A stretch of DNA of 64,000 bases, from IMG/VR virus record IMGVR_UViG_3300045960_000114, positions 96,001 through 160,000 of that record. One strand, 5' to 3'. The DNA comes from a virus. A program made the position numbers and the translations under genes. This document shows positions 24,435 to 48,286 of this stretch, piece by piece. Numbering within the stretch: position 1 is the first letter of the stretch; each line of letters opens with the position of its first letter. The notes under the pieces were generated by a model. That model did not search any database. It was not told the origin of the DNA and saw only the letters and a program-made list of their open reading frames with translations.

Positions 24435-24644
24435 ATGGTCAAGATCGTGTTCGGCGGCAACAGCGTAGTCAAGGCGTACGACGGCCAGCAGGTGGCCCAG
24501 GTCCGCACGGACCTGTCGGGATTCTTTCAGATCCCGGGCAACGCGCAGGTGCGCGTGAACGGCGTCACCGCCGGTGAGGACACCACGCTCCGCCCCAACG
24601 ACGTGGTTGAGTTCATCAAGCAGTCGGGCGAGAAGGGCTGCTAG
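24435..24644 (+). CDS. Ubiquitin-like (beta-grasp, ThiS/MoaD/Ubl) protein ending GEKG-C
   Basis: VRVNG...LRPNDVVEFIKQSGEKGC. Lies upstream of E2, JAB and E1 genes. Confidence 0.85.
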   Translation: MVKIVFGGNSVVKAYDGQQVAQVRTDLSGFFQIPGNAQVRVNGVTAGEDTTLRPNDVVEFIKQSGEKGC

Positions 24645-24672
24645 CCCTCTCCGACTGTTGACGTACCAGTGT

Positions 24673-24714
24673 GATACCAGCGCCTGTCTCCCACAGGCGC
24701 TGGTGTCTTTTTTT
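24673..24714 (+). terminator. Intrinsic terminator between the Ubl and the enzyme genes
   Basis: 15-bp stem GATACCAGCGCCTGT/ACAGGCGCTGGTGTC plus T7. Confidence 0.85.
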
Positions 24715-24752
24715 AGTTACCACCAAACCAACCCCAAGAAGCAGGAGGAAGG

Positions 24753-25487
24753 ATGAGTGAGGAGCGGATCGTAGCAGCAAAGGATGCTCCAGCTGCTAAG
24801 CCAGCCGATGCCGTTGAACCGCACTACGCGGATCTCAACGAGCGGTTGACTGAACAGTTGCGGAATTTCCGGGCTGCTGGCGAGGCGTTGGGGCTTCTTC
24901 TCGTCGAGAACATCAAGTTCAACCGTGACAAGTTGAGCGAGTTCTTCGACAAGTTTGAAGCGATCAAAGAAGCGCTGCCGGACGTCGATGCCGTATTGAA
25001 GGCGTGCGACGATCTGGCGGAATTCAAAAAGCGGCTGGATGGTGCCGTGGCGGATCTGGACACCAAGTTCATGGGCCAGCTTACGACCCTGAACAACACG
25101 GTCAATGGACTCGTGGCGTCGCAGCAGGAGAGGGCGCAACGCGACGGACAACCCGTGGATCTGACGTCCGTGATGTCGTTGGTCACCACGATACGCGATC
25201 AGGCGGTGGACCTGGAGAACAGGTTCAGCGCTCTGTACGAACGTGTCACGATGGTGGATCAGAGCCACCGCGATACGACCGGCGAGGTGCACACACGGCA
25301 CGACAACCATGCACGAGCTACCGCCGCGCGGTTCTTGCAGATTGAGAACCGCGTGACGGAACTCGAAGGAAGAGTTGCTAACCTGCCCACGAATCTACCT
25401 GGTCGGCTCATTGAGCTGAGAAACAGGATCGAAAGGCTCGAGCCCCGCTCAGAAAGCGGGCAACAAAACGAAGGAGGGACGTCTTAA
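24753..25487 (+). CDS. Coiled-coil protein in the Ubl operon
   Basis: Heptad-rich. AGGAGG RBS. Confidence 0.8.
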   Translation: MSEERIVAAKDAPAAKPADAVEPHYADLNERLTEQLRNFRAAGEALGLLLVENIKFNRDKLSEFFDKFEAIKEALPDVDAVLKACDDLAEFKKRLDGAVADLDTKFMGQLTTLNNTVNGLVASQQERAQRDGQPVDLTSVMSLVTTIRDQAVDLENRFSALYERVTMVDQSHRDTTGEVHTRHDNHARATAARFLQIENRVTELEGRVANLPTNLPGRLIELRNRIERLEPRSESGQQNEGGTS

Positions 25488-26201
25488 ATGGCGGTTCCCG
25501 CACAACAACAGCGGCGTCGGATCGTCGTTCAGAATGGACTCGTTCTGATGGAGCTGGTGACGTTGGAGAAGGTCGGCTCCCTCGGTGACTGGATGAACAA
25601 GGTACTGGAGTCGTCGCCCTCGCCCAGCAAGTTGCTTCCGCTCGACTGCGTGGACAACTTCTCCCTGCGGCGCAAGGACACGACGCACCGCCGGATCTAC
25701 GTGACATACATGCACCCCCGGATGCAGACGTTCCGCTTCCGTGGCGACCGCGCGAACGCGCAGGCACAGCAGTACGAACTGAGCTGGCCGCACACCCTCT
25801 GGTGGTTCGTGTTCTCGAACCAGCAGTTGAACGGCCTGTACCTGACCGCCACGAAGGTCTCACCGTACGAGGTTCCGAACTACATGGACCTCGACTTGTT
25901 CTGGCTGCCCTGTCCGAATCAGTACCCTGAGGGTCACTTCTGCCTCGGTAACCTGAGCACGGACATCTCGTGGCCGGACTGGCGGCGCGTCAATGTCCTG
26001 CGCAATGATGTACTGTCGTCGAACTGGAACACCGACCTGATCCCGAATCTGTCCGGGTTCCCGTTCAGCTCCATCCCGGAGTGGGCGGAGCAGTCGAGCC
26101 GCAAGCCGGAGCTCTGGAAGGAGCTTCCGTTCAAGCCGTACGTACACCCCACGTACCGGAAGATGTGCGACTACCTGATGGGAGTGGGAGGCCGAGAGTA
26201 G
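25488..26201 (+). CDS. Prokaryotic E2-like (Prok-E2_D / PRTRC protein B-like) enzyme
   Basis: WPHTLWWF...LFWLPCPNQYPEGHFCLG matches the P-x-x-N-x-x-x-x-G-x-x-C-x-G pattern with a candidate catalytic Cys. Confidence 0.8.
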   Translation: MAVPAQQQRRRIVVQNGLVLMELVTLEKVGSLGDWMNKVLESSPSPSKLLPLDCVDNFSLRRKDTTHRRIYVTYMHPRMQTFRFRGDRANAQAQQYELSWPHTLWWFVFSNQQLNGLYLTATKVSPYEVPNYMDLDLFWLPCPNQYPEGHFCLGNLSTDISWPDWRRVNVLRNDVLSSNWNTDLIPNLSGFPFSSIPEWAEQSSRKPELWKELPFKPYVHPTYRKMCDYLMGVGGRE

Positions 26202-26202
26202 C

Positions 26203-26514
26203 ATGGCTACGAAAGTCGAAGACGAGAAGTTGATGCAGCAGCTGATCGACGCGCTGGTGGCTATGCCTCCGGGCAAGATCCAGAGCATCCCCGAGATCAT
26301 GGGTCAGTTCATGACCATGTCCCGGGAGAGCCTGGTTACGTGGGCTGGGCGGCCCGAGCAGGTGATGGCCGCCCAGTTCATGGCCTATCTCAAAGGCCAC
26401 GGCATGCTGACGGAAGTGCTGGAGTCGAAGTTCGATTCCTCGTTCAAGGTCATGACGGACGCAATGGCGCTGTGTCCGTCAAAGGCGAGCAGAGTCTCGG
26501 AGGGAGGCCACTAA
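26203..26514 (+). CDS. Small helical protein in the Ubl operon
   Basis: GGGAGG RBS. Tightly packed between the E2 and JAB genes. Confidence 0.7.
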   Translation: MATKVEDEKLMQQLIDALVAMPPGKIQSIPEIMGQFMTMSRESLVTWAGRPEQVMAAQFMAYLKGHGMLTEVLESKFDSSFKVMTDAMALCPSKASRVSEGGH

Positions 26515-26517
26515 GGG

Positions 26518-27807
26518 ATGTTTCCCATCATTCAGGTGAGCAAGGAGATGAAGGACTCCGATATCCCGCAGGAGAATTGTTATCTCATCGGGTCCAACGG
26601 GGTCTTCAAGCAGGTCGTCAACGAGTTCTACAGCGTCCGGGTGAAGAACGGATCACTCCCGGATCTGCAGGAACTCAAGGAAGACGTCGAACTCCACGTG
26701 ACGCGGCTGCCCCAGCGCATCCTCGACCACGTGCACGCGTTCTTCCGCGCCGTGAACGACAAACACAAGGGGGAGGCTGTTGTCCTCCTCATGTACCATC
26801 CCACGGACAAAAGGTGGATCGTCAAGATCCCCCCGCAGGACACAAAGGGGATGAGCGTCCACTACGATCTGGATAAGGGCGACGCCCTCATCTGGATTCC
26901 CTCGAACGGTAAGGAAGAGATGACCTTGGTACATAACCAGCGGGAAGCCCCGCCGGAAGGTATCAAGGATTTCAGGCTCTTCGGGTCGATACACAGCCAC
27001 TGTGACGCCGGCGCGTTTCACAGTGGTACGGATGACAAGGACGAGTTCTGTTTCGACGGCCTCCACATCACGTTGGGGCACGTCAGCAAGAATCCGCCCG
27101 ACATCAGTTGCCGGTGGATGTTAGCTGGCCAGTGGTGGAAAGCGGAAGCGAGCGGCTGCATTGCGTTCGACCACGCGGCACCGAAGGTGGACGACCGCTG
27201 GATGGATCGCGTAAGCGAGGTGAAGTATTCGCCCGCTGTCCAGACCTGGGTGTCCCCGCCATCGGGTACCGGGTTCGATTCGCCCATGAGCAGGCATCCG
27301 TACGATGGCAATGGGTACGGGTACAGCGGGTACGAAGGACCTGGGAGTCACGACGACCCAAAATCACAAACCCCCACACAGGCGGGCGGCGGAAGCGCAG
27401 GAGGAAGCACAAGCGGGACGACAAATCCTGCTACCTCCTCGACTAATACGCCGGATGTGGGGGAAGATGACACACCGCCGGTGTACGAACTGTTCGCTCG
27501 GTACGAGGACGTTACTGAGCACGCAACACTCACCAGTAAGGAACTGTCCATCATCCAGTTGTGCGAGGACGACCCGCAGCTCCTGTCGTTCATGGAGACG
27601 TTGAGTGAGGAGGAACTGAAGCGGTTGCTGACTACTCACGAACTGTTCGACAAGTTCATGGAGGAGGCGTCGATCGACTTCATCGCACGCAAGCAGGCTG
27701 AAGGCGATGGTTCAGGCAAGACGGATATCGACGGCAAGCGGCTTGCCGATCTGATCGAAGAGGAGAAGGAAGCGCAAAAGGAAGGGGAGGTACTCGGGAG
27801 TGTTTGA
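26518..27807 (+). CDS. JAB/JAMM metalloprotease (PRTRC protein A-like) with long low-complexity C-terminal extension
   Basis: GEAVVLL...SIHSHCDAGAFHSGTDDKDE (E...HxH-x7-S-x2-D). N-terminal YLIGSNGVF. Confidence 0.88.
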   Translation: MFPIIQVSKEMKDSDIPQENCYLIGSNGVFKQVVNEFYSVRVKNGSLPDLQELKEDVELHVTRLPQRILDHVHAFFRAVNDKHKGEAVVLLMYHPTDKRWIVKIPPQDTKGMSVHYDLDKGDALIWIPSNGKEEMTLVHNQREAPPEGIKDFRLFGSIHSHCDAGAFHSGTDDKDEFCFDGLHITLGHVSKNPPDISCRWMLAGQWWKAEASGCIAFDHAAPKVDDRWMDRVSEVKYSPAVQTWVSPPSGTGFDSPMSRHPYDGNGYGYSGYEGPGSHDDPKSQTPTQAGGGSAGGSTSGTTNPATSSTNTPDVGEDDTPPVYELFARYEDVTEHATLTSKELSIIQLCEDDPQLLSFMETLSEEELKRLLTTHELFDKFMEEASIDFIARKQAEGDGSGKTDIDGKRLADLIEEEKEAQKEGEVLGSV

Positions 27808-28576
27808 ACCCAAAACTGTAGCGGTGGTGGGTTGCGGGGGGATCGGCTCATGGCTGATCCCTCCGCTCGTACGATACTTGGCGTCGGAGGACTACGACGG
27901 GGAGATAATCCTCTTCGACGGCGACAAGTACGAGGAAGGGAACGTTTGCAGGCAGGCGTTCCCCATGCGCTGTATGGGCATGAACAAGGCGGAAGCCATG
28001 CGTGACCGCATCCTCGATGACCTGCCACACGTGCTGGTTACGGCTAACAGCCAGTACATCAGCAAGGAGACGGCTGGGATGGCCATGCGCGAGCATGGCG
28101 TGTGCTTCGCCTGCGTGGACAACCACCCGGCGCGTGCACATCTGGCCCGGCAGTGTGAGTCATTGAAGAACGGACTGTTGATCTCTCCAGCAAACGAGAA
28201 GTATGACGGCAACGTCTGCGCGTACCTGAGAGAGAATGGGAAGGAGTCCACAGAGCACCTCCTCAACCGTCACCCGGAAATTGCGGCGAAGACCGAGGGT
28301 GACCGTGGAGCGGGCTGTGAGGCTCTTACTGCGGCAGGCGAGACGCAGCTGATGTTGGCCAATCTGTATGCGGCTACGACTGCGATGGGTGTGTTCTGGA
28401 ACCTGTACAACCAGGGCATGCGCATGGAGAAGGGTACTAAGCTGACTGAGAAAGCGCAGGAAACCTTCTTCGACATCCGTACGTTGCAGGCGAATACCGT
28501 GTTCGCACCGAAAGGAGGCGTACATGCAGCTAGCCCCGATATGCCTGTCGTCGCTATTCCTGCTGGATCCGCATAG
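27800..28576 (+). CDS. ThiF/E1-like adenylyltransferase
   Basis: VVGCGGIGS, LFDGDKYEEGNVCRQ, NKAEAM, CVDNHPAR and a candidate catalytic GCEAL. Confidence 0.9.
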   Translation: MFEPKTVAVVGCGGIGSWLIPPLVRYLASEDYDGEIILFDGDKYEEGNVCRQAFPMRCMGMNKAEAMRDRILDDLPHVLVTANSQYISKETAGMAMREHGVCFACVDNHPARAHLARQCESLKNGLLISPANEKYDGNVCAYLRENGKESTEHLLNRHPEIAAKTEGDRGAGCEALTAAGETQLMLANLYAATTAMGVFWNLYNQGMRMEKGTKLTEKAQETFFDIRTLQANTVFAPKGGVHAASPDMPVVAIPAGSA

Positions 28577-39989: not shown

Positions 39990-40007
39990 AGCTATCAGGC
40001 AGGTGGT

Positions 40008-40036
40008 GTAAAATACCCCCCAGTATGCGTTAGCAT
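40008..40036 (+). promoter_or_regulatory. Putative phage-specific promoter GTAAAA-17-TAGCAT
   Basis: Matches 23402-23430 and directly follows a terminator. Confidence 0.6.
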
Positions 40037-40091
40037 ATATTAAGGAGCGTTCCGTTAATCCCCCATAACCCTTTTCTACGGAGAGAGTTGC

Positions 40092-40424
40092 ATGAGTCAG
40101 TTCCCAAAGAACCAGCATGACCGGGACGCGTTGTTGAATCCTGGTGAGCTGAAGAGATGGGTGGCCGACATAGTAGACAACAAGTTCGCTGTGTGCCATG
40201 TCTGTCTGCGCGCTTGGCGGCGTGTGGATGGTAAACGGTATTTCGAGACGTCGCCGCAGATCTTCAAGCATCACAGGTCGGTCTCAGCGATGCATACGGT
40301 TATATGCCCGGAGTGTGCCGCGAGCGAGGAAGACAGATGGAAGCGGCAGTGTGTTAGTGCGAGGGTAAACCGTAAGTCGCGCATAGCCATGGTGAAGATC
40401 CTAAAGTCGGAGAGGGATTTGTAG
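40092..40424 (+). CDS. Zinc-finger-like protein
   Basis: CHVC...CPEC. Confidence 0.65.
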   Translation: MSQFPKNQHDRDALLNPGELKRWVADIVDNKFAVCHVCLRAWRRVDGKRYFETSPQIFKHHRSVSAMHTVICPECAASEEDRWKRQCVSARVNRKSRIAMVKILKSERDL

Positions 40425-40684
40425 TGAGAAAGGAGGAGCAAGTGGGACACGAAGTCATCTGCCCGATCTGTCATAGGGTTTGGGTGTGGCAAGGCGATGA
40501 TGCGCTGTATAACGTGGCTGGGTACATGGTAGTTGTGTATGGAAAGCCCACCAAGTTGGACAGATGTACTTGCCCTACGTGCAGCCATATACCAGCTCCC
40601 AGGCATATCCCACCTAATGGGCCAGGTAATGTGCCCGAGGTAAACCCCTGGCAGGAGAATGCCATCAGGGCACTAGAGGGATAG
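40424..40684 (+). CDS. Zinc-finger-like protein
   Basis: CPICH...CTCPTC. Confidence 0.6.
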   Translation: MRKEEQVGHEVICPICHRVWVWQGDDALYNVAGYMVVVYGKPTKLDRCTCPTCSHIPAPRHIPPNGPGNVPEVNPWQENAIRALEG

Positions 40685-40788
40685 GTTGAGAGCCCACCCA
40701 AAGCCGTTCCCTGCCACGAATATTGCCCGCTGCGAGTAGGATGCATCTATACGCAAGCTGGTAGCTGCACTAGCTTTACATGGTGCAG

Positions 40789-40868
40789 TGAGATTCTGAC
40801 GTAACCTAACAGAATCTCAGCCGTACGGGTTAACCCCTTATTAAATAGGGGGTTACCTGCGTTAGCAT
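40789..40868 (+). promoter_or_regulatory. Palindromic operator plus GCGTTAGCAT element
   Basis: TGAGATTCTG-11 nt-CAGAATCTCA, then the TAACCCC/GGGGTTA inverted repeat, then TAGCAT at 40863. Confidence 0.55.
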
Positions 40869-40980
40869 ACCATGGCCGAGAGTTGTGCTTGTCCAGAGGG
40901 TAACCCGGGGGCTTGATGCGATACGTCAGGACCGGGCTGTGCCTGAGGCTTGCGCGACTCTCACTCGCGAGGAGAAACAC

Positions 40981-41319
40981 ATGAGTTGGATGACCTACGG
41001 ACTGATCGGCGCTGCGGCACTGGTGGGCGGGTTGGGCATCTACGCCTGCTGCAAGCGCAAGAAGGGCGGCTCGAGCAAGGTCAGCGGCAGGCGCCACACG
41101 TCGGAGCCCAAGTTCAAAGCGTCCAAGGACAAACGCTTTGACAAGCACCGCCGCTTGGCGTTGGCCGCGCTGAAGCAGGCGAACAGCTTGCAGAAGAAGT
41201 TGGCGATGGCCATCGCCAAGAACGACAAGTCCTTGGCGAAGAAGGTCACGAAGCGCCTCGAGGCGCTGAAGACCCAGATGGAGCGTCTGCACCTGAAAGG
41301 GGCAGCTGTGGCGGCCTGA
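40981..41319 (+). CDS. N-terminally anchored Lys-rich protein
   Basis: GAGGAG RBS. TM helix followed by a very basic region. Confidence 0.75.
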   Translation: MSWMTYGLIGAAALVGGLGIYACCKRKKGGSSKVSGRRHTSEPKFKASKDKRFDKHRRLALAALKQANSLQKKLAMAIAKNDKSLAKKVTKRLEALKTQMERLHLKGAAVAA

Positions 41320-41357
41320 ACCGCCCTGCCGCCGGCTCCTCCGGGAGCTGGTGGCGG

Positions 41358-41393
41358 AAGAAACGCGCGCGATCATCGCGGGCGTTTTCTTTT
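41358..41393. terminator. Probable bidirectional terminator
   Basis: A-run, stem with one mismatch and T-run, between convergent genes. Confidence 0.5.
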
Positions 41394-41401
41394 GATATGG
41401 C

Positions 41402-42274
41402 TTAAAGGAGTCGCTTGACTACGGCTGCTCCGGTGGCGGAAGAGCCGTTCAGCGGGATATGGCGTACAGGCTTCTCGAACTGCATGGGCCGGCAATCCAT
41501 CGGGAAGTGGCCGCCGGTGTCGCCCCAGTGGATATAAACGGCTGCCGTGGGGATGTTGAGGATAGGTGCCCACAGCGTAGTGCCGGTCTCACCCCCGACG
41601 TGCACAGCGGCCATGCTGATCAGGGCCAGGCTGTCCATCGGGTCCAGATCCTCATTCCAAAGGGGATAACAGTTTTTGGGCGTCCGCATCTTCGCCGCCG
41701 AGTCCTTGGTGCCGATCAGCACGACTGGGCAGATTTTGCCGATCTCCTCACACAGCTCAGCCCACCAGCCGGGCGGTGCGTTGCGGTGTTGATTGTAGGC
41801 AGCGTCGTAGAGTGGTTGGATGGTAATGAAGCCGCTGTACAGCTTGTGCTTATCCAGCAGGGCGCGAACCTTCGTGCAGTTCTCCGGTTTGGGCTGGATG
41901 CTCGGCCTGCAGATCTTGTTCTTCCGTAGCCAGAGCCAGATCCGCCACATGTTCGTGTGGTACATGACGTAGGCGGCGGGCTTGGGGATTTCCTCTGTGG
42001 AGGACTCGGCGATCCACAGTTCATCGGCGATGCCCCGGAACATCCATTCGATGTCCAGGTGCTTGGCCCAGCTCACTTCTTCGCGGTTTGGGTCATCGAC
42101 GACGATGATGTGGTCGTGGGGATTGCGTGTGCGCCAGTCCAGCAGCCAGACGTAGGCTGCCGCCCGGTCGCCCATGCGGAATGCCCCGCCGTGCAGCTTG
42201 GGCTTATGGCGCCCAGAGAGGTCCATGAATGCCCGGCGCCCGTGGTGCTCTGACAGCAGTAGCTTCTTCATCAT
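41402..42274 (-). CDS. GT9 (heptosyltransferase)-like glycosyltransferase
   Basis: VVLIGT...DSLALISMAAVHVGGETGTTLWAPILNIPTAAVY resembles the GT9 C-terminal signature. Confidence 0.65.
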   Translation of the reverse strand: MMKKLLLSEHHGRRAFMDLSGRHKPKLHGGAFRMGDRAAAYVWLLDWRTRNPHDHIIVVDDPNREEVSWAKHLDIEWMFRGIADELWIAESSTEEIPKPAAYVMYHTNMWRIWLWLRKNKICRPSIQPKPENCTKVRALLDKHKLYSGFITIQPLYDAAYNQHRNAPPGWWAELCEEIGKICPVVLIGTKDSAAKMRTPKNCYPLWNEDLDPMDSLALISMAAVHVGGETGTTLWAPILNIPTAAVYIHWGDTGGHFPMDCRPMQFEKPVRHIPLNGSSATGAAVVKRLL

Positions 42275-42918
42275 TTGCCCTTGAGTAGTGCCGTCTGGAT
42301 GTTCTGTTCGCCGCTGGGCAGTGTGCCGCGAATGGCGTCCTCCAGATCAGCGCACGTGTACATGGTATGGCCATAGAAGAGTGTGGCCAGTGAACACAGG
42401 GTGAAGTAGTGAAGATGCTCGCCGGGCCGGTAGTGCTTCCATTCGCGCTTGTAGGGGAACCAGCGCGGCCTGGCCGGGAAGGACACCAGGATCCACTTGG
42501 CTCGCTTGGCCAGGTGGGTGACGGCCTTGAAATCGGGGAAGTGTTCGAGCGAGTCGAAGAAGGTCACGACGTCCCAATGCTCGTGGCCTTCCAGTGGCAT
42601 TTCGCGGACGCCGTAGTCCGCGTGGTGGACGTCGTTGCCATATGCGTCGAAGCCGGCCTTCAGCGCCGCCTTCACGAAAGCACCATTCCCGTACCCGACG
42701 TCAAGCAGCTTGCCCTTCGGGCAGAATGACTTGAGGTAGCCCAGCCGAAGGTAGCTCATGGCCTCGGTGGTTGGGTACATGTCGTAGCGATTGTGGATGT
42801 AGTCTTTGTCGTAATGTGCGGTGACAGCCAGCGTGGACTGGTAGATGTGGTCACAGGCGCAACGCGACAGCCCGTCCAGCTCTTCAATGGGATGAGTGTG
42901 GCATACGGGGCAGATCAT
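42271..42918 (-). CDS. SAM-dependent methyltransferase with N-terminal Cys cluster
   Basis: LLDVGYGNG, DVVTFFDSLEHFPD, EHLHYFT. GGAGG RBS before ATG 42918. Confidence 0.85.
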   Translation of the reverse strand: MICPVCHTHPIEELDGLSRCACDHIYQSTLAVTAHYDKDYIHNRYDMYPTTEAMSYLRLGYLKSFCPKGKLLDVGYGNGAFVKAALKAGFDAYGNDVHHADYGVREMPLEGHEHWDVVTFFDSLEHFPDFKAVTHLAKRAKWILVSFPARPRWFPYKREWKHYRPGEHLHYFTLCSLATLFYGHTMYTCADLEDAIRGTLPSGEQNIQTALLKGK

Positions 42919-43004
42919 CAGACAAACCCTCCAGTTCGGGACCATCATACAGAGTATTGATAGCCCCGTCCACACCTGGAGCCAGAAAAGAAACGGAGAG
43001 ACAG

Positions 43005-43289
43005 ATGAGTCATTGTGCTTGGCATGTAAAGTTCCTCGAGGGTTCACCTGACTGTGATGACAAGCCAATTCGCATTCCAGGGGGTGTACGTGTTGTGTAC
43101 GGGGGGAATTATATTGATCATACGCTTGCTGGAGAGACTGTTCGCCAGGTGGCGAAGCGGTGGCGTTGTTTCTTTTCTATACGCAGACGTTCGAGGTGTT
43201 TTGTAAATGAGCAGCCTTCCAACCGTAATTACAGACTTGAACCTGGGGACCGTTTGGAGTTCGTTCCACCTGGCGATTGTTGCCGATAA
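43005..43289 (+). CDS. Second ubiquitin-like protein (paralogue of 24435-24644)
   Basis: Ungapped alignment to the operon Ubl, 19/59 identities. Confidence 0.75.
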   Translation: MSHCAWHVKFLEGSPDCDDKPIRIPGGVRVVYGGNYIDHTLAGETVRQVAKRWRCFFSIRRRSRCFVNEQPSNRNYRLEPGDRLEFVPPGDCCR

Positions 43290-43310
43290 CTCTTGATAAC
43301 GGAGGTGATC

Positions 43311-43607
43311 ATGCGAGTTAGGTTCAATGTGCAGTTTGAAGGGGACTGGTTATATTTGGATTTAGAGATTCCTATTACTCCTTTCCCAGGGTTGGTTGTT
43401 TGGGAACTGCCGGGCTTTCCAGGCGAGCCGTTTTTTGTAAAGTCGGTCGACTACATGTTTAAGGGTGGTTACTCGACTGTTATGTACGGTCACGGTGACG
43501 ATGAAGACGACGTCGAGTATCCCCCGTTATACGGCGAGTTTGCCAAGCGGCTGATTAACGCTGGCTGGCGATCTGGTATTGATACGGATCGGATAGAAAT
43601 AACGTAA
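43311..43607 (+). CDS. Hypothetical protein
   Basis: GGAGG RBS. Confidence 0.65.
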   Translation: MRVRFNVQFEGDWLYLDLEIPITPFPGLVVWELPGFPGEPFFVKSVDYMFKGGYSTVMYGHGDDEDDVEYPPLYGEFAKRLINAGWRSGIDTDRIEIT

Positions 43608-43666
43608 CAGCCATTACCAACCAATCTGTCGTTTCGTAGTTCAAACCCAACACAACGATAACGGAG

Positions 43667-43912
43667 GTGCCAGTGAGAAAGAATGCAGCATCAGCGGGAC
43701 AGTGGAAGCGGCGATCGTCGGCGAGAGCCGAGGCGCCAAGCAAAGTGAAGTCTCCTGCTACGGTTCTGAAGGAGGTTTCCGCCTATGTACGGGAGGTGGA
43801 TCCGCCCAAGCGAAGGTGTGAGCTCTGCAGGGCGTTCCTGCGGAGTGGAAACAACACCAATAGGTGTGCGCTGTGTGTGCGGAAGCTGAAACCGAAGGAG
43901 TTGGAGGAGTGA
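43667..43912 (+). CDS. Basic zinc-finger-like protein
   Basis: CELC...CALC. Confidence 0.6.
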   Translation: MPVRKNAASAGQWKRRSSARAEAPSKVKSPATVLKEVSAYVREVDPPKRRCELCRAFLRSGNNTNRCALCVRKLKPKELEE

Positions 43913-43913
43913 G

Positions 43914-44303
43914 ATGATAAGGAAAAGAAGTGAGCTGTTGCGCGGTACGATCTGGAATCACATAATGCAGGGGAGTGACGCACTGTATATCGCCTTGTCA
44001 GTCGATGACAGTAATTCTCTCGGTAGACGGTCCAGTGAACACCAACTGTGGTCGATCACATTATCGCCCTTAAACTGTTGTGGATTGGTGTGGTCACGCA
44101 CAACTGACAACTGCGTTGTCTTCCCACCTCATACGTGGAGTCCTGCTACATATGATGCTGTCATACGGGGGACTGATTGGGCGGCACAGCGTGGCGTGTT
44201 TCTGACGCCGCTGTGTTGGCGACTTTACGCAGGAGATCAGGATGCAGGCGGACAAGCGGTGCAAGGACTGTCACAGGGGGGTGCTGGAGCACAGGTCCGG
44301 TGA
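43914..44303 (+). CDS. Hypothetical protein (end uncertain)
   Basis: GGAGGAG RBS. Confidence 0.45.
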   Translation: MIRKRSELLRGTIWNHIMQGSDALYIALSVDDSNSLGRRSSEHQLWSITLSPLNCCGLVWSRTTDNCVVFPPHTWSPATYDAVIRGTDWAAQRGVFLTPLCWRLYAGDQDAGGQAVQGLSQGGAGAQVR

Positions 44304-44381
44304 CCTGTGGGCATGCCGCCGCTGTGGTGCGAAGTGGTACAGGAACTTTCACGGGAAGATGCTTCCAGTAAAGGAGTAGGA

Positions 44382-44744
44382 ATGATTCACGTTGATTTGG
44401 GGAATGGCCGCTCCATCAAGATCGAGTGGCACCACAGGCCGAAGGAGCGGTACAGCATTGCCACGGCGTTGATGATCACGAAGGAGGGGACGGTCGGCGA
44501 CGCGGTCAGCACCATGTCCAAGTGCCACCCGAATGATCCCTGGAGCAAGGAGCAGGGCAGGCGCGTGTCGTTGACGCGGTTGCTCGAGGTGTTGACGTAC
44601 CACGGGGTGGATGACCTGGCGTACATGCTGCCTAACAAGCTGACGAAGATGGACCGGACGTTGATCTGGGCGGCATACTTCGGCAGGAAAGCTGCAGCAT
44701 TACAGCAGCCTTCCAGCAGCATTTCCGCAGCAATTCAGCAGTAA
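44382..44744 (+). CDS. Phage-type hypothetical protein
   Basis: SKCHPNDPWSKEQGRRVSL. AAAGGAG RBS. Confidence 0.7.
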   Translation: MIHVDLGNGRSIKIEWHHRPKERYSIATALMITKEGTVGDAVSTMSKCHPNDPWSKEQGRRVSLTRLLEVLTYHGVDDLAYMLPNKLTKMDRTLIWAAYFGRKAAALQQPSSSISAAIQQ

Positions 44745-44769
44745 TCCTGCAGTCTTCTGAGGAGGAGTC

Positions 44770-45213
44770 ATGAGTACAACATACACGGCGTACACCGTGA
44801 TCGGTGTGCGCCTGCATGAGAACCAGCTGGTTCGGTACAGGAAGGTGAAGGGTTGTAACTGCTTCGATGTGGACCCACGCAACAAGTTCTGTCCGCACTG
44901 CGCGGCGCCGGTCAGCAAGTCGCACAAGTATTATGTTGGCGTGTTCAACGGCGAGCGCGATCAGCTGGAGCGTGAATTGGACAACGGGCTCAAACTGGTC
45001 CGGCCTTACCACGACAGCGAAGATGTGTTCCTTGGTAGTGTGTTTGGGGTGGATCACGACGTCGGCTCAGGCGACTTCACTTGGAACTTTCTCCACTGGC
45101 CGGACATGGAGTTCGTCATGTCGACCAAGGAGAAACTGCGGCATATGTTGGAGCTGCATGAGCTATGGGATGAGCGTGATTTTGGGATTTACACATTCCT
45201 TGGCATCCGTTGA
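44770..45213 (+). CDS. Zinc-ribbon-containing protein
   Basis: FCPHCAA. GGAGGAG RBS. Confidence 0.75.
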   Translation: MSTTYTAYTVIGVRLHENQLVRYRKVKGCNCFDVDPRNKFCPHCAAPVSKSHKYYVGVFNGERDQLERELDNGLKLVRPYHDSEDVFLGSVFGVDHDVGSGDFTWNFLHWPDMEFVMSTKEKLRHMLELHELWDERDFGIYTFLGIR

Positions 45214-45647
45214 GGAGGAAACATGAACCTGTGCACAAAGCAGAAACGGAGGAGCTGATGGGTAAGCAGAAGGTAACAGCGCAGCCGCTAGAGGTTCTTC
45301 ATCAGTTGGCAAAGGACATCGTACACGGGCATATATTCACGCATCGGCATCTCGAGGACGTGAAGCTGGTCATCCACGTGTTCCTGCCTATCGGACTTGG
45401 GGGACTGGATGACATTGATTACAGCTCCCTGGGCATGATCTATGCACGCCGGGACTCGGCCATCAGGCTGAGTATTAATGGTCACCCCGTCTTCAGGGAG
45501 TGTTCATTGCTGAACAAGAAAGATGCGAAGGCCGTATGGAAGATGGCCAACGAGATGCACGAGGCGGTTGAGCGGGTGCAGATACCGGCGAAGAAGAAAG
45601 TTACCGGTCGTAGACGGCAGGTCTTCAAGCGTAAACGGAGGAGCTGA
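45210..45647 (+). CDS. Hypothetical protein
   Basis: Track ORF. Confidence 0.65.
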   Translation: MRRKHEPVHKAETEELMGKQKVTAQPLEVLHQLAKDIVHGHIFTHRHLEDVKLVIHVFLPIGLGGLDDIDYSSLGMIYARRDSAIRLSINGHPVFRECSLLNKKDAKAVWKMANEMHEAVERVQIPAKKKVTGRRRQVFKRKRRS

Positions 45648-45651
45648 AGGG

Positions 45652-46101
45652 ATGGATCGGGAATTGGAGATATCGGTCATGCGGGCGGTTTTCGGCGAGA
45701 AGAGAGTGGAGCCGTGGATTCCTGCGCTGGAAGCCGCCTTGGATACGGCGGATGAGGACCGGCGGGGGTCTGTTTCGGAGTTGTTCAAGCAGATCTTCGC
45801 TCAGAATGCGAAGTTCAATGCCTTGACCGGAAGACAGAAAGAGCTCGCGGAAGAGGCGGAGGAAATCCGCAGGTTGGTTAATGGGGACGGTGGTGCGCCA
45901 GCACTCGACACGGTCATGCGGACTGAAGAGCGCGTTAACAGGCTACACGATAACGCGGTCCGTATTGAGCGAGAGTCGGCGTGGTCGTTCATCCAACTGA
46001 TGGTCAGCGTCCGTAAGCTGCGGAAGCTGATGGAGGACGCGGAGCCTGGTTCGTCCATCAGGCTTGAGGCGCAGATCAAGCGGGAGGCCGGATTGGAATA
46101 G
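45652..46101 (+). CDS. Coiled-coil hypothetical protein
   Basis: ATG directly after the upstream stop. Confidence 0.65.
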   Translation: MDRELEISVMRAVFGEKRVEPWIPALEAALDTADEDRRGSVSELFKQIFAQNAKFNALTGRQKELAEEAEEIRRLVNGDGGAPALDTVMRTEERVNRLHDNAVRIERESAWSFIQLMVSVRKLRKLMEDAEPGSSIRLEAQIKREAGLE

Positions 46102-46115
46102 GAGGGAGATCTAAG

Positions 46116-46616
46116 ATGCCCTGTCAGGATCCGTGGCCGGAGGGAACGCGCGCCGCTGAGGAGGAAGGGTGTCGCGCGCGGTTGGATAAAGTCACGCAGT
46201 TCCTCTGCTGGCTCTGCGGTGAGCTGGAGGAGGATAAGCTTCTGGATAAGTACACCCGGAACCACGAAGAGCTGCGGAAGTGGAAGGACGAGCATGACAA
46301 CGCAGACATGAATCGCGTCTATCTCGAGATGTACCGGTTCGTCTGTAGTGGTAGGTGTGACCCAGATGAGTGGGAATTGCTGGGTGGCCACTTTATCAAT
46401 CTTGCGCTCAAGGTCCATCCCGTGAGCCGTTCCCATCGGAAGTGGTTCTTGCGGATGGCGCATCAGGTGTGTCTTGCGCGCAGGAACGAGCTGCGCGCCC
46501 ATACCAAGAAGATGTCGTTGAAGGCAAAAGTGTTGAAGCGGCTGTCCCCCGAGGAACGCGAAGCGCTGGGGTTCAGCAACAGAAAACCCAAACCCAAGAA
46601 ACGGAGGAAGAAGTGA
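46116..46616 (+). CDS. Hypothetical protein
   Basis: GGAGG RBS. CWLC. Confidence 0.7.
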   Translation: MPCQDPWPEGTRAAEEEGCRARLDKVTQFLCWLCGELEEDKLLDKYTRNHEELRKWKDEHDNADMNRVYLEMYRFVCSGRCDPDEWELLGGHFINLALKVHPVSRSHRKWFLRMAHQVCLARRNELRAHTKKMSLKAKVLKRLSPEEREALGFSNRKPKPKKRRKK

Positions 46617-46624
46617 CTGAGGCG

Positions 46625-47068
46625 ATGAAGGAAGCGGCGGATAGGTTGAACATGGCGATGAGGACCGCCCTGACGACGTTTGCCGGCGAGCTGGACATCA
46701 CCGAGATCGAGCGCAAGCACTGGCAGGAGTTGACGGCGCAACTGAAGGCCAAGGAGGCGGAGTTGGCCCAGCGCGAGAAGAATGTCAAGAACCGGGAGGA
46801 GTCGGCGAAGGACGTGCACAAGATCGCGGCTGACAGACTGCTCCGGGAGAAGATCGCGAAGGAAAGCGCCGATCAGTCGAATGCGAAGTGCAAGAAGGCT
46901 GAAAAAGAGAGGGACGAGGCGCGGGCTGACAAGAAGCGTCTTGAAGACGTGATCGAGGCGCTCATCAAGGAGAAGAAAGAGTTGGCTGCACGCGTGGCCG
47001 ACTTGACGCGGGCGTGTGCTGAACTGGAGGCGCAGGTGCCTGTGAAGGGAGGCGCTGATGTCGGATGA
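46625..47068 (+). CDS. Coiled-coil protein
   Basis: Heptad-rich, K/E-rich. Confidence 0.7.
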   Translation: MKEAADRLNMAMRTALTTFAGELDITEIERKHWQELTAQLKAKEAELAQREKNVKNREESAKDVHKIAADRLLREKIAKESADQSNAKCKKAEKERDEARADKKRLEDVIEALIKEKKELAARVADLTRACAELEAQVPVKGGADVG

Positions 47069-47486
47069 AGTCTGTGCCAAGCCGACCCCCGTGGGGCCGA
47101 GCTGGCATTCGCAGGTGCAGGTGAAGGAGATGCCCAAGCCCTCGGCGCCGGCGCAGTCGCAGCCGGCTGAGGTGAGCACGTTCATTCCCGGCGGCTCGAT
47201 CGTCAAGCCGGAGACGAGTGCCGGGATCACGCACAAGAACGCGCTGCATCAGCAGGATGTGCATCGGCTGATGTACGTGCTTGAGGGTACGGTACGCACG
47301 ATCACGTATTCGTTGACGATGCTTGGCATTCGTGGGGTAGACTTTGCGATAGCCGAGAAGCAGCTCCATCTGGCCGGCATGGACCGGTGTCCGTACTGTG
47401 ATCGGTGGTTCAGGGAGGAGTACCGGCAGGGCCGTGGCAGGGCTGGCGCGTGTTACCTGTGCCAGATCGGAGACGACGCCTACTAG
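47058..47486 (+). CDS. Protein with C-terminal zinc finger
   Basis: CPYC...CYLC. GGAGG RBS. Confidence 0.7.
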   Translation: MSDEVCAKPTPVGPSWHSQVQVKEMPKPSAPAQSQPAEVSTFIPGGSIVKPETSAGITHKNALHQQDVHRLMYVLEGTVRTITYSLTMLGIRGVDFAIAEKQLHLAGMDRCPYCDRWFREEYRQGRGRAGACYLCQIGDDAY

Positions 47487-47495
47487 GAGGGCTTC

Positions 47496-47978
47496 ATGCG
47501 AGTCTACGTTGCTGTTGTCCATCATCGGCATGGTGAGGATATGTATCTCAGTTGTTCGATGAATGATCTGTTCAGGCAGTTGTACGGGTACGTCACTCAA
47601 TGGTGGGGTGAATTCAAGGACGACGAACCGATCCCAGCGGACCACAAGGAGGCCGTCAAGGCGTACTTCGAGGAGGCCGAGGGCTATGACAGCGACGAGC
47701 ACGAGTGGTACACGGTGGACTCGCACGACTTGAAGGAACCGAGCCCGATGTCGCCGCCCATCTACGACATCCTGGACGTGGTCGCGGGGCACATCGGTCG
47801 AACTGGTCCGATCAACTTCATGGACCATGGGACTGAGAACATCTTGGTGGTCGATGCGAATCTCACCCGGAAGGAGTTCATCCTGACAGTGGACAAGGCG
47901 GGTGACGGCAATGAGGAGTCGTACGAGATGCACTTCCGGCTGAAGAAGGTCAAGCGAACAAGGACGGACCGCGAATGA
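47496..47978 (+). CDS. Hypothetical protein
   Basis: AGGAGG RBS. Confidence 0.75.
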   Translation: MRVYVAVVHHRHGEDMYLSCSMNDLFRQLYGYVTQWWGEFKDDEPIPADHKEAVKAYFEEAEGYDSDEHEWYTVDSHDLKEPSPMSPPIYDILDVVAGHIGRTGPINFMDHGTENILVVDANLTRKEFILTVDKAGDGNEESYEMHFRLKKVKRTRTDRE

Positions 47979-48286
47979 ACCCTACCCTGTGGGTGCTTGT
48001 ATCGTTGCTCTTCTTCGCCGTGGGTGAGGCAGCGTCGAAGCTGTGGTCGGAAGGGTGTACGGACTGGTGGGCGATCGCTGCGGTGGCCGCTTACATCACC
48101 TGCGAGGTGCCGTGGCTGGTGGCCATACGCGAGCACGGGCACCTGACGTCGTTGGGGACGTTCTGGTCAGTTGGGGCGGTTGTGGTCACCATCCTTGTAG
48201 GCATGGTGGCCTTCGGGGAGTCCATTACCATGCGGCAGGGTATTGGGCTGGCGATCGCCTTTGTGGCCTGCTGGCTTCTGAGCTGA
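47975..48286 (+). CDS. SMR/DMT-superfamily four-TM membrane protein
   Basis: 103 aa, four hydrophobic helices, GMVAFGESIT..QGIGL. Confidence 0.7.
   Translation: MNPTLWVLVSLLFFAVGEAASKLWSEGCTDWWAIAAVAAYITCEVPWLVAIREHGHLTSLGTFWSVGAVVVTILVGMVAFGESITMRQGIGLAIAFVACWLLS

Follow-up and report, generated by a model that had tools for sequence, protein, structure and literature searches.

A ubiquitin-like protein with a replaced C-terminal tail, encoded apart from the conjugation operon of a large phage, as a candidate non-conjugatable binder

A role in phage defence has been demonstrated only recently for bacterial ubiquitin-like (Ubl) conjugation (Bil, Bub, CBASS Cap2), and a literature search turned up no account of counterparts or regulators that are encoded by phages. 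The large phage considered here carries a Ubl operon and, far from it, a second Ubl gene whose product ends in an unusual C-terminus. This raises the question of whether the orphan is a true relative of the operon Ubl and, if so, what a Ubl with such an end could do. The window, i.e. the whole stretch of 64,000 nucleotides that was analyzed, corresponds to bases 96001-160000 of an IMG/VR virus record of 185,265 bp, which is estimated to be 88 % complete. It covers a replication and nucleotide-metabolism region with genes for an SbcC-like ATPase, helicases, a family A DNA polymerase, a RecA-like protein and a ribonucleotide reductase. The orphan Ubl is referred to as P0001 and the operon Ubl as P0002, and the coordinates of both loci are given in Table 1.

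Table 1. Features of the Ubl operon and of the orphan Ubl locus, in window coordinates
Feature	Position	Strand	Details
Operon Ubl gene (P0002)	24435-24644	+	69 aa; end G-E-K-G-C; canonical tail
E2-like gene	25488-26201	+	237-aa product, putative E2-like
Small ORF	26203-26514	+	between the E2-like and JAB genes
JAB peptidase gene	26518-27807	+	weak Prok-JAB match; best NCBIfam match PRTRC_A, under the cut-off
ThiF-type E1 gene	27800-28576	+	PF00899, 2.6e-18; best NCBIfam match PRTRC_ThiF, under the cut-off
Divergent intergenic region	42919-43004	.	86 bp; separates the minus-strand methyltransferase gene from the P0001 gene; GGAG 42995-42998
Orphan Ubl gene (P0001)	43005-43289	+	94 aa plus TAA stop; ATG start; GGAG 42995-42998, six nt upstream
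N-terminal extension of P0001	43005-43082	+	residues 1-26; His3, Cys4, His7, Cys17; predicted disordered
Beta-grasp core of P0001	43083-43265	+	residues 27-87; strands 27-32, 35-40, helix 46-57, strands 64-67, 83-87
Rewired tail of P0001	43263-43286	+	V87-P-P-G-D-C-C-R94; eight residues past Phe86
Downstream ORFan	43311-43607	+	98 aa; GGAGGTG upstream; 92-aa form in the protein collection

The operon is a co-oriented set of genes (24435-28576) in which P0002 is followed by the gene of a coiled-coil protein. The 185-kb record holds one E1, one JAB and two Ubl genes in total, and no second E1 or JAB that could belong to the orphan was found in it. The codon adaptation of the P0002 gene is extreme (CAI 0.905 and GC3 0.93, compared with genome means of 0.71 and 0.70), which suggests that it is very highly expressed. 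Two close relatives, P0014 and P0015, are 88 % identical over 68 residues (tblastn) and end in KGS and KG, so that the terminal Cys of P0002 is a Ser in the former and missing in the latter. Close relatives of the phage are present in Logan/ENA assemblies (L009 and a 9-kb ENA contig with P0015) and keep the operon order, namely the Ubl, proteins of about 235-250, 237 and 103 aa, JAB, E1 and a protein of about 283 aa. In L009, the Ubl, the E2-like protein and JAB are 88 %, 79 % and 76 % identical to those of the window by tblastn. The contigs of both relatives end short of the region syntenic to the orphan.

The orphan product is a gap-free homologue of the operon Ubl. BLASTP aligns residues 28-87 of P0001 with residues 2-61 of P0002 at an E-value of 2e-10, with 30/60 positives and 19/60 identities; an earlier reading of the sequence alone (the sequence-only reading) had counted 19/59, and its gap-free alignment stands. 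The ungapped BLOSUM62 score of the pair is 80, compared with 22 +/- 3.9 for shuffled sequences, and none of the 3000 shuffles (2 x 1500) reached it (z about 15-17). Identity at the three codon positions is 43, 53 and 28 %, which places the likeness at the protein level and indicates that the two genes diverged long ago under protein-level constraint. An independent family profile of 35 domains, from which P0001 was left out, recovers residues 27-87 of P0001 without gaps at 55.2 bits (E 3.6e-19 for that single comparison). The homology had been put forward as something that shuffling or a profile search, together with a predicted beta-grasp fold, should bear out, and all of these checks were passed. 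The descriptive details held up as well: the C-termini read as had been described (LEF-VPPGDCCR in P0001, VEF-IKQSGEKG-C in P0002) and the N-terminal extension, put at 27 aa, measures 26-27 residues. As for the distance of about 18 kb to the enzymes, the orphan gene lies 18.6 kb from the start of P0002 and 14.4 kb from the end of the E1 gene at 28576.

The core of P0001 is as well preserved as that of its canonical relatives. When each of 12 canonical lineages was left out of a core-only profile in turn and then scored, they obtained 48-72 bits, and P0001, scored in the same leave-out manner, obtained 60.3 bits and P0002 48.2. With a value amid the canonical range, the core is without sign of decay. 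From an alignment of 16 sequences, AlphaFold2 predicts a beta-grasp fold, in which a pair of strands is followed by a helix, two short strands and a last strand, with a pLDDT of 85-91 over residues 27-89. Both ends are disordered in this model (pLDDT < 50 over residues 1-20), which leans on the family alignment; the pLDDT from the single sequence is an uninformative 42. The top Foldseek matches of the model are ubiquitin, NEDD8, SUMO, MoaD, TGS and Urm1 (probability 1.0, TM-score by target 0.6-0.69), with E-values in the PDB that are modest (0.004-0.02), the domain being so small, and viral Ubl proteins match it in BFVD. The conserved polar core residues of the family are kept (N68, D82, E85 and G43), and the near-invariant core Gly of the V-N-G motif is a Glu. 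An ESM feature search places P0001 among phage clusters, some of which are associated with ThiS. Judged by its core sequence and predicted fold, P0001 is a member of a phage Ubl family linked to E1 and JAB.

The extent of this family was outlined by database searches. With P0001 as the query, an exhaustive phmmer run against 1.84 billion representative sequences returned seven matches. Six of them, at E-values of 2.6e-7 to 8.5e-4, are Ubl relatives, and the seventh was discarded as a spurious repeat protein. A profile search raised the number of Ubl relatives to 17 in all. As defined here, the family comprises P0002-P0006, P0008-P0022 and the viral loci L011-L016 and L115-L139. Its members follow the pattern V-x-V-x-x-G ... 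G-x-T-V ... V-N-G ... G-D-x-L-E-F-x-K-x-[AS]-G-x-K-G and usually end there or at most four residues later. Some consist of two or three tandem domains with K-G junctions, resembling polyubiquitin. N-terminal extensions of 27-100 aa are frequent. Several members have a helix-rich N-terminal domain, which in P0016 matches Pfam Rho_N (PF07498). Similar extensions of 75-100 residues precede the Ubl domain in L011-L014 (L011:5731-6201, L013:5725-6201, L014:4338-4820). These domains are hints, at the level of sequence, that some phage Ubls may be targeted to nucleic acid.

In every locus with readable context, the Ubl adjoins a ThiF-type E1 gene; most of these loci include a JAB gene, and the contigs are phage-like. 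A scan based on the E1 found this E1 type on at least 202 IMG/VR viral contigs of up to 527 kb (loci L035-L114), and a family Ubl adjoins the E1 in all 23 large records searched. Judging from these loci, phage cassettes of Ubl, JAB and E1, with or without an E2-like gene, appear to be widespread. Neither a published name for the family nor a description of such phage-encoded cassettes was found in the literature search, and the family Ubls have no PADLOC or PHROG match and only sub-threshold ThiS matches in Pfam. P0001 shares with the family the core (55-60 bits, no gaps), the domain length, the frequently present N-terminal extension, the tail length and the stop position. It differs in being basic and Cys-rich, in the Glu in place of the V-N-G Gly, and in ending in P-G-D-C-C-R instead of [AS]-[GA]-x-K-G. 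It also differs in location: the Ubl gene lies beside the enzyme genes in every other examined locus that includes the E1 gene, whereas the gene of P0001 lies 14-18 kb away from them.

The tail is where P0001 departs most clearly from the family. The family tail also comprises eight residues, x-K-x-[AS]-[GA]-x-K-G, and P0001 keeps both this length and the position of the stop. All four conserved K/G/K/G positions are replaced, with Arg94 standing in for the conjugating Gly, so that P0001 lacks the family tail with its 0-4 trailing residues. The family HMM, which has 70 positions, matches P0001 no further than position 62. Among 37 family domains, 33 end in [AS]-[GA]-x-K-G with 0-4 residues added; the four without the K-G end are P0001, P0024 (see below) and two internal domains of di-Ubls, for which release is not expected. 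A further 23 large viral records gave 25 matches, every one of which has an alignment that runs through position 108 of the 109 in the model, and three family members from metagenomes also end in A-G-E-K-G. A frameshift as the origin of the P0001 tail was considered and rejected, as the other two frames of 43260-43330 contain no K-x-A-G-x-K-G.

ThiF/MoeB/E1 enzymes adenylate a small flexible tail that ends in Gly. Work on Bil places the C-terminal Gly in the nucleotide site of the E1 (10.1101/2023.09.04.556158). Given the replaced tail and its terminal Arg in place of the conjugating Gly, we infer that P0001 cannot be activated by the E1, and it is very probably non-conjugatable in the normal way of the family. 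The sequence-only reading of a rewired tail on a homologous beta-grasp core is borne out, and the tail argues strongly against normal conjugation.

A remote second Ubl copy is a rare arrangement. Among 23 other large records, a search at an E-value of 0.01 or better found none. In the complete 181-kb phage IMGVR_UViG_3300035698_016797, a triple Ubl precedes E2-like, JAB and E1 genes, in the gene order of the window, and a weak fourth Ubl match, P0024 (L022:1372-1839; G001:C1:19230-19697), lies about 20 kb from this operon. P0024 is recognized by hhalign with 88.6 % probability and by the family profile with 15 bits, and shares 9/24 identities with P0001. Past the last strand it reads F-I-P-P where P0001 reads F-V-P-P, and both are without the K-G end, whereas the longer C-terminal extension of P0024, which overlaps the next ORF, and its other neighbours set the two apart. 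The P0024 gene has an ATGA overlap with an upstream gene of 197 aa, which makes it translationally coupled, and at its 3' end it runs about 120 nt into the next ORF. None of its neighbours has a Pfam match. Apart from this, no relationship between the two phages is evident: they differ in GC content (42 % vs 57.5 %) and have six proteins in common, four of which belong to the operon. From this one weak match, it is suggestive that tail-less orphan Ubls are a recurring type.

The immediate surroundings of the orphan gene are poor in known families. It is the first plus-strand gene past the divergent region and heads a run of small ORFans, several of which encode Cys pairs. A single sigma-70-like site was found in the divergent region, on the minus strand and no better than in shuffled sequences. 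The minus strand upstream of it carries a methyltransferase gene (PF13489, 8.5e-14) as well as a 290-aa ORF without a significant family match; apart from this methyltransferase, the neighbours have no Pfam, PHROG or NCBIfam match. The methyltransferase ORF as called (265 aa, 42271-43068) overlaps the start of the P0001 gene. Its true start is probably the ATG at 42918 behind GGAGGG, from which the overlap vanishes and the product consists of an N-terminus with a Cys pair and the methyltransferase domain. The only homologue found for the downstream ORFan is itself. The P0001 stop and the ORFan start at 43311 share one frame without a further stop between them (43287-43313), so read-through of the TAA would, as a possibility in the sequence, yield a fusion of the Ubl with a further protein. 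An identical 13-nt motif, GATAACGGAGGTG, occurs at 43295-43307 and 43657-43669, before or over the starts of two successive small genes, and is probably a common context of stop codon and ribosome-binding site. Two perfect 11-nt inverted repeats touch the P0001 gene, but an mRNA structure was rejected, as the 321-nt region folds no better than shuffled sequences (z +1.42).

On balance, we give about even chances to the reading that P0001 is a "tail-dead" protein with the Ubl fold, non-conjugatable and acting by binding. Its core is as well kept as that of the canonical members, and the eight-residue tail, which in the family would be adenylated by the E1 and cut by JAB, has been replaced residue for residue. 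An intact core combined with a full, length-preserving replacement of the tail fits a protein that folds and cannot be transferred, and is not what neutral decay would be expected to leave. P0001 could then not enter the conjugation cycle and, if it is made, would work through non-covalent binding via its Ubl surface. The retained polar residues and the canonical-level core score suggest that it probably still meets the usual partners of the family. The most plausible of these would be the proteins that recognize the canonical Ubl, i.e. the phage's E1, E2-like protein or JAB, or similar machinery of the host. P0001 would then act on the Ubl machinery as a competitor or regulator, which is the most natural, if speculative, version of the binding reading; equally speculative is the decoy of the sequence-only reading, which would jam an E1 or JAB. 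The specific form of a natural dead-tail competitive inhibitor or timer of Ubl conjugation that occupies an E1, E2 or JAB, be it the phage's own, the host's or a rival phage's, is distinctly doubtful. Points against the binding reading are that no orthologue was found, that the codons are atypical, that the protein collection lacks the exact sequence, that the V-N-G Gly is a Glu, and that the protein is unusually basic and rich in Cys.

A rather unlikely but serious alternative is a protein with the Ubl fold whose function is unrelated to the operon, e.g. a small basic adaptor that binds nucleic acid or metal, brought in from another phage with the downstream ORFan as a two-gene accessory cassette. 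The two genes form a 603-bp islet with a GC content of 0.486, and only 0.4 % of the 600-bp windows of the genome are as low. Both have low CAI and GC3; for P0001, the values are 0.574 and 0.43, compared with 0.706 +/- 0.057 and 0.70 +/- 0.08 for long genes. On this make-up, joint acquisition with the ORFan from a source of lower GC is tentatively favoured over an old duplication within the genome. Repeats at the flanks of the islet could mark a mobile cassette, but no meaningful ones were found. In a phylogenetic tree, P0001 forms a long lone branch outside the P0002 clade, which also speaks for the cassette, although the AU test does not reject their union (p 0.43) and hence a common origin. 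The word "paralogue", used in the sequence-only reading, is uncertain; by sequence, both an ancient duplicate and an acquired homologue are possible. P0001 is also unusually basic and rich in Cys, with a pI of 9.1 (core 9.8), 13 Arg, six Cys and an R-R-R-S-R loop, and this composition could point to another partner such as nucleic acid or metal. The position of P0001 at the head of the run of small, partly Cys-paired ORFans behind the divergent region and the Rho_N/SAP-like N-terminal domains of some family members are in line with such a role. On the other hand, P0001 keeps N68, D82, E85 and G43 and scores like a canonical member over its core, which suggests continued contact with the usual partners, and neither gene of the islet matches a family that would name another function.

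It is also fairly improbable, though to be taken seriously, that the gene is a remnant, i.e. a Ubl copy that has lost its tail, is no longer expressed or useful, and is open by chance or owing to recent loss. Its codon adaptation is at a level that shadow ORFs reach equally well, and its coding-potential score is -0.06, compared with 0.27 +/- 0.14. The exact protein sequence, with either the ATG or an upstream TTG start, is absent from a collection of 15 billion proteins that includes P0002 and the downstream ORFan, and is not among the collection's proteins for this record; the gene thus appears to be unannotated. Orthologues were found neither by a word-indexed search of 5.8 billion proteins, nor by scans of IMG/VR and JGI metagenomes with P0001 patterns, nor by tblastn against GenBank phages. 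Likewise, blastn of 40001-48000 against phages found nothing, and a scan of metagenomes with the family pattern returned canonical-tailed members only. The sequence composition unlike that of the family, the long branch and the replaced near-invariant Gly would fit a remnant, too. Against it stand the undecayed core, which with 60 bits is mid-range among the canonical lineages, the restriction of the changes to the tail with exact length and stop position kept, and a 94-codon frame that is open and begins with an ATG behind a GGAG. Moreover, the neighbouring ORFan is equally odd in composition and yet a called protein in the collection, so composition alone is no mark of a dead gene.

That P0001 is still a covalent tag, processed after Gly90 (the second tag cleaved after Gly of the sequence-only reading) or activated at a non-glycine C-terminus, e.g. 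by Cys92-Cys93 chemistry, is very improbable: the tail does contain a Gly and has the length of the family's mature tail, and JAB trimming is expected in this phage from the extra Cys past the Gly of P0002, but Gly90 lies four residues short of the conjugating Gly and behind Pro-Pro, no position of the K/G/K/G set, which would mark a cleavage site, is kept, and none of about 65 family members examined uses anything other than Gly.

The binding reading gives P0001 its wider interest. Preservation of the core with loss of precisely the conjugation tail is what would be expected in the sequence of a non-transferable binder. If P0001 binds the E1, the E2-like protein or JAB, it would be a natural inhibitor and a handle on the function of the phage Ubl system; if it does not, it would be a modest example of how the Ubl fold is recruited elsewhere. 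Should the inhibitor or timer form be true, P0001 would be the first decoy-type regulator of Ubl conjugation in conflicts between phages and bacteria, and P0024 with its F-x-P-P tail would be a second, independently evolved case.

Among known systems, the Bil operons resemble the operon of this phage in their parts list of Ubl, E2-like protein, JAB and E1 (PMC11601603; 10.1101/2023.09.26.559546; 10.1101/2023.09.04.556158). BilA and BubA, the Ubls of Type II Bil and Bub systems in bacteria, lie in an operon with E2, JAB (or BubE) and E1 and end in a Gly; both features are found again in P0002 and not in P0001, and BilA needs its C-terminal Gly (10.1101/2023.09.04.556158). A search of PDB chains with the family profile gave nothing under an E-value of 0.4 and hence no detectable tie to the solved BilA/BubA. 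PADLOC had no match for the Ubls, the E2-like protein or JAB, with the qualification that PADLOC 2.0.0 may not model Bil. With ThiS/MoaD (PF02597), P0001 shares the beta-grasp fold and a weak Pfam match over residues 53-89 (19.6 bits, E 0.0013), which is below the Pfam cut-off of 22.5 bits; it differs in its G-D-C-C-R tail without Gly-Gly and in having no sulfur-transfer genes nearby. The F-x-P-P turn past the last strand is a feature that we take to recall MoaD. A match to PF14452 (Multi_ubiq) was absent at E-values up to 1. Hub1/UBL5, with Tyr-Tyr in place of Gly-Gly, and the Ubl-domain adaptors Rad23/Dsk2 are not conjugated and bind non-covalently. Like them, P0001 combines a predicted ubiquitin-like fold with the lack of a conjugatable C-terminal Gly, and it is unrelated to them in sequence and host. 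By analogy, the functional counterparts of P0001 would thus be Hub1/UBL5 and the Ubl-domain adaptors rather than any known phage protein.
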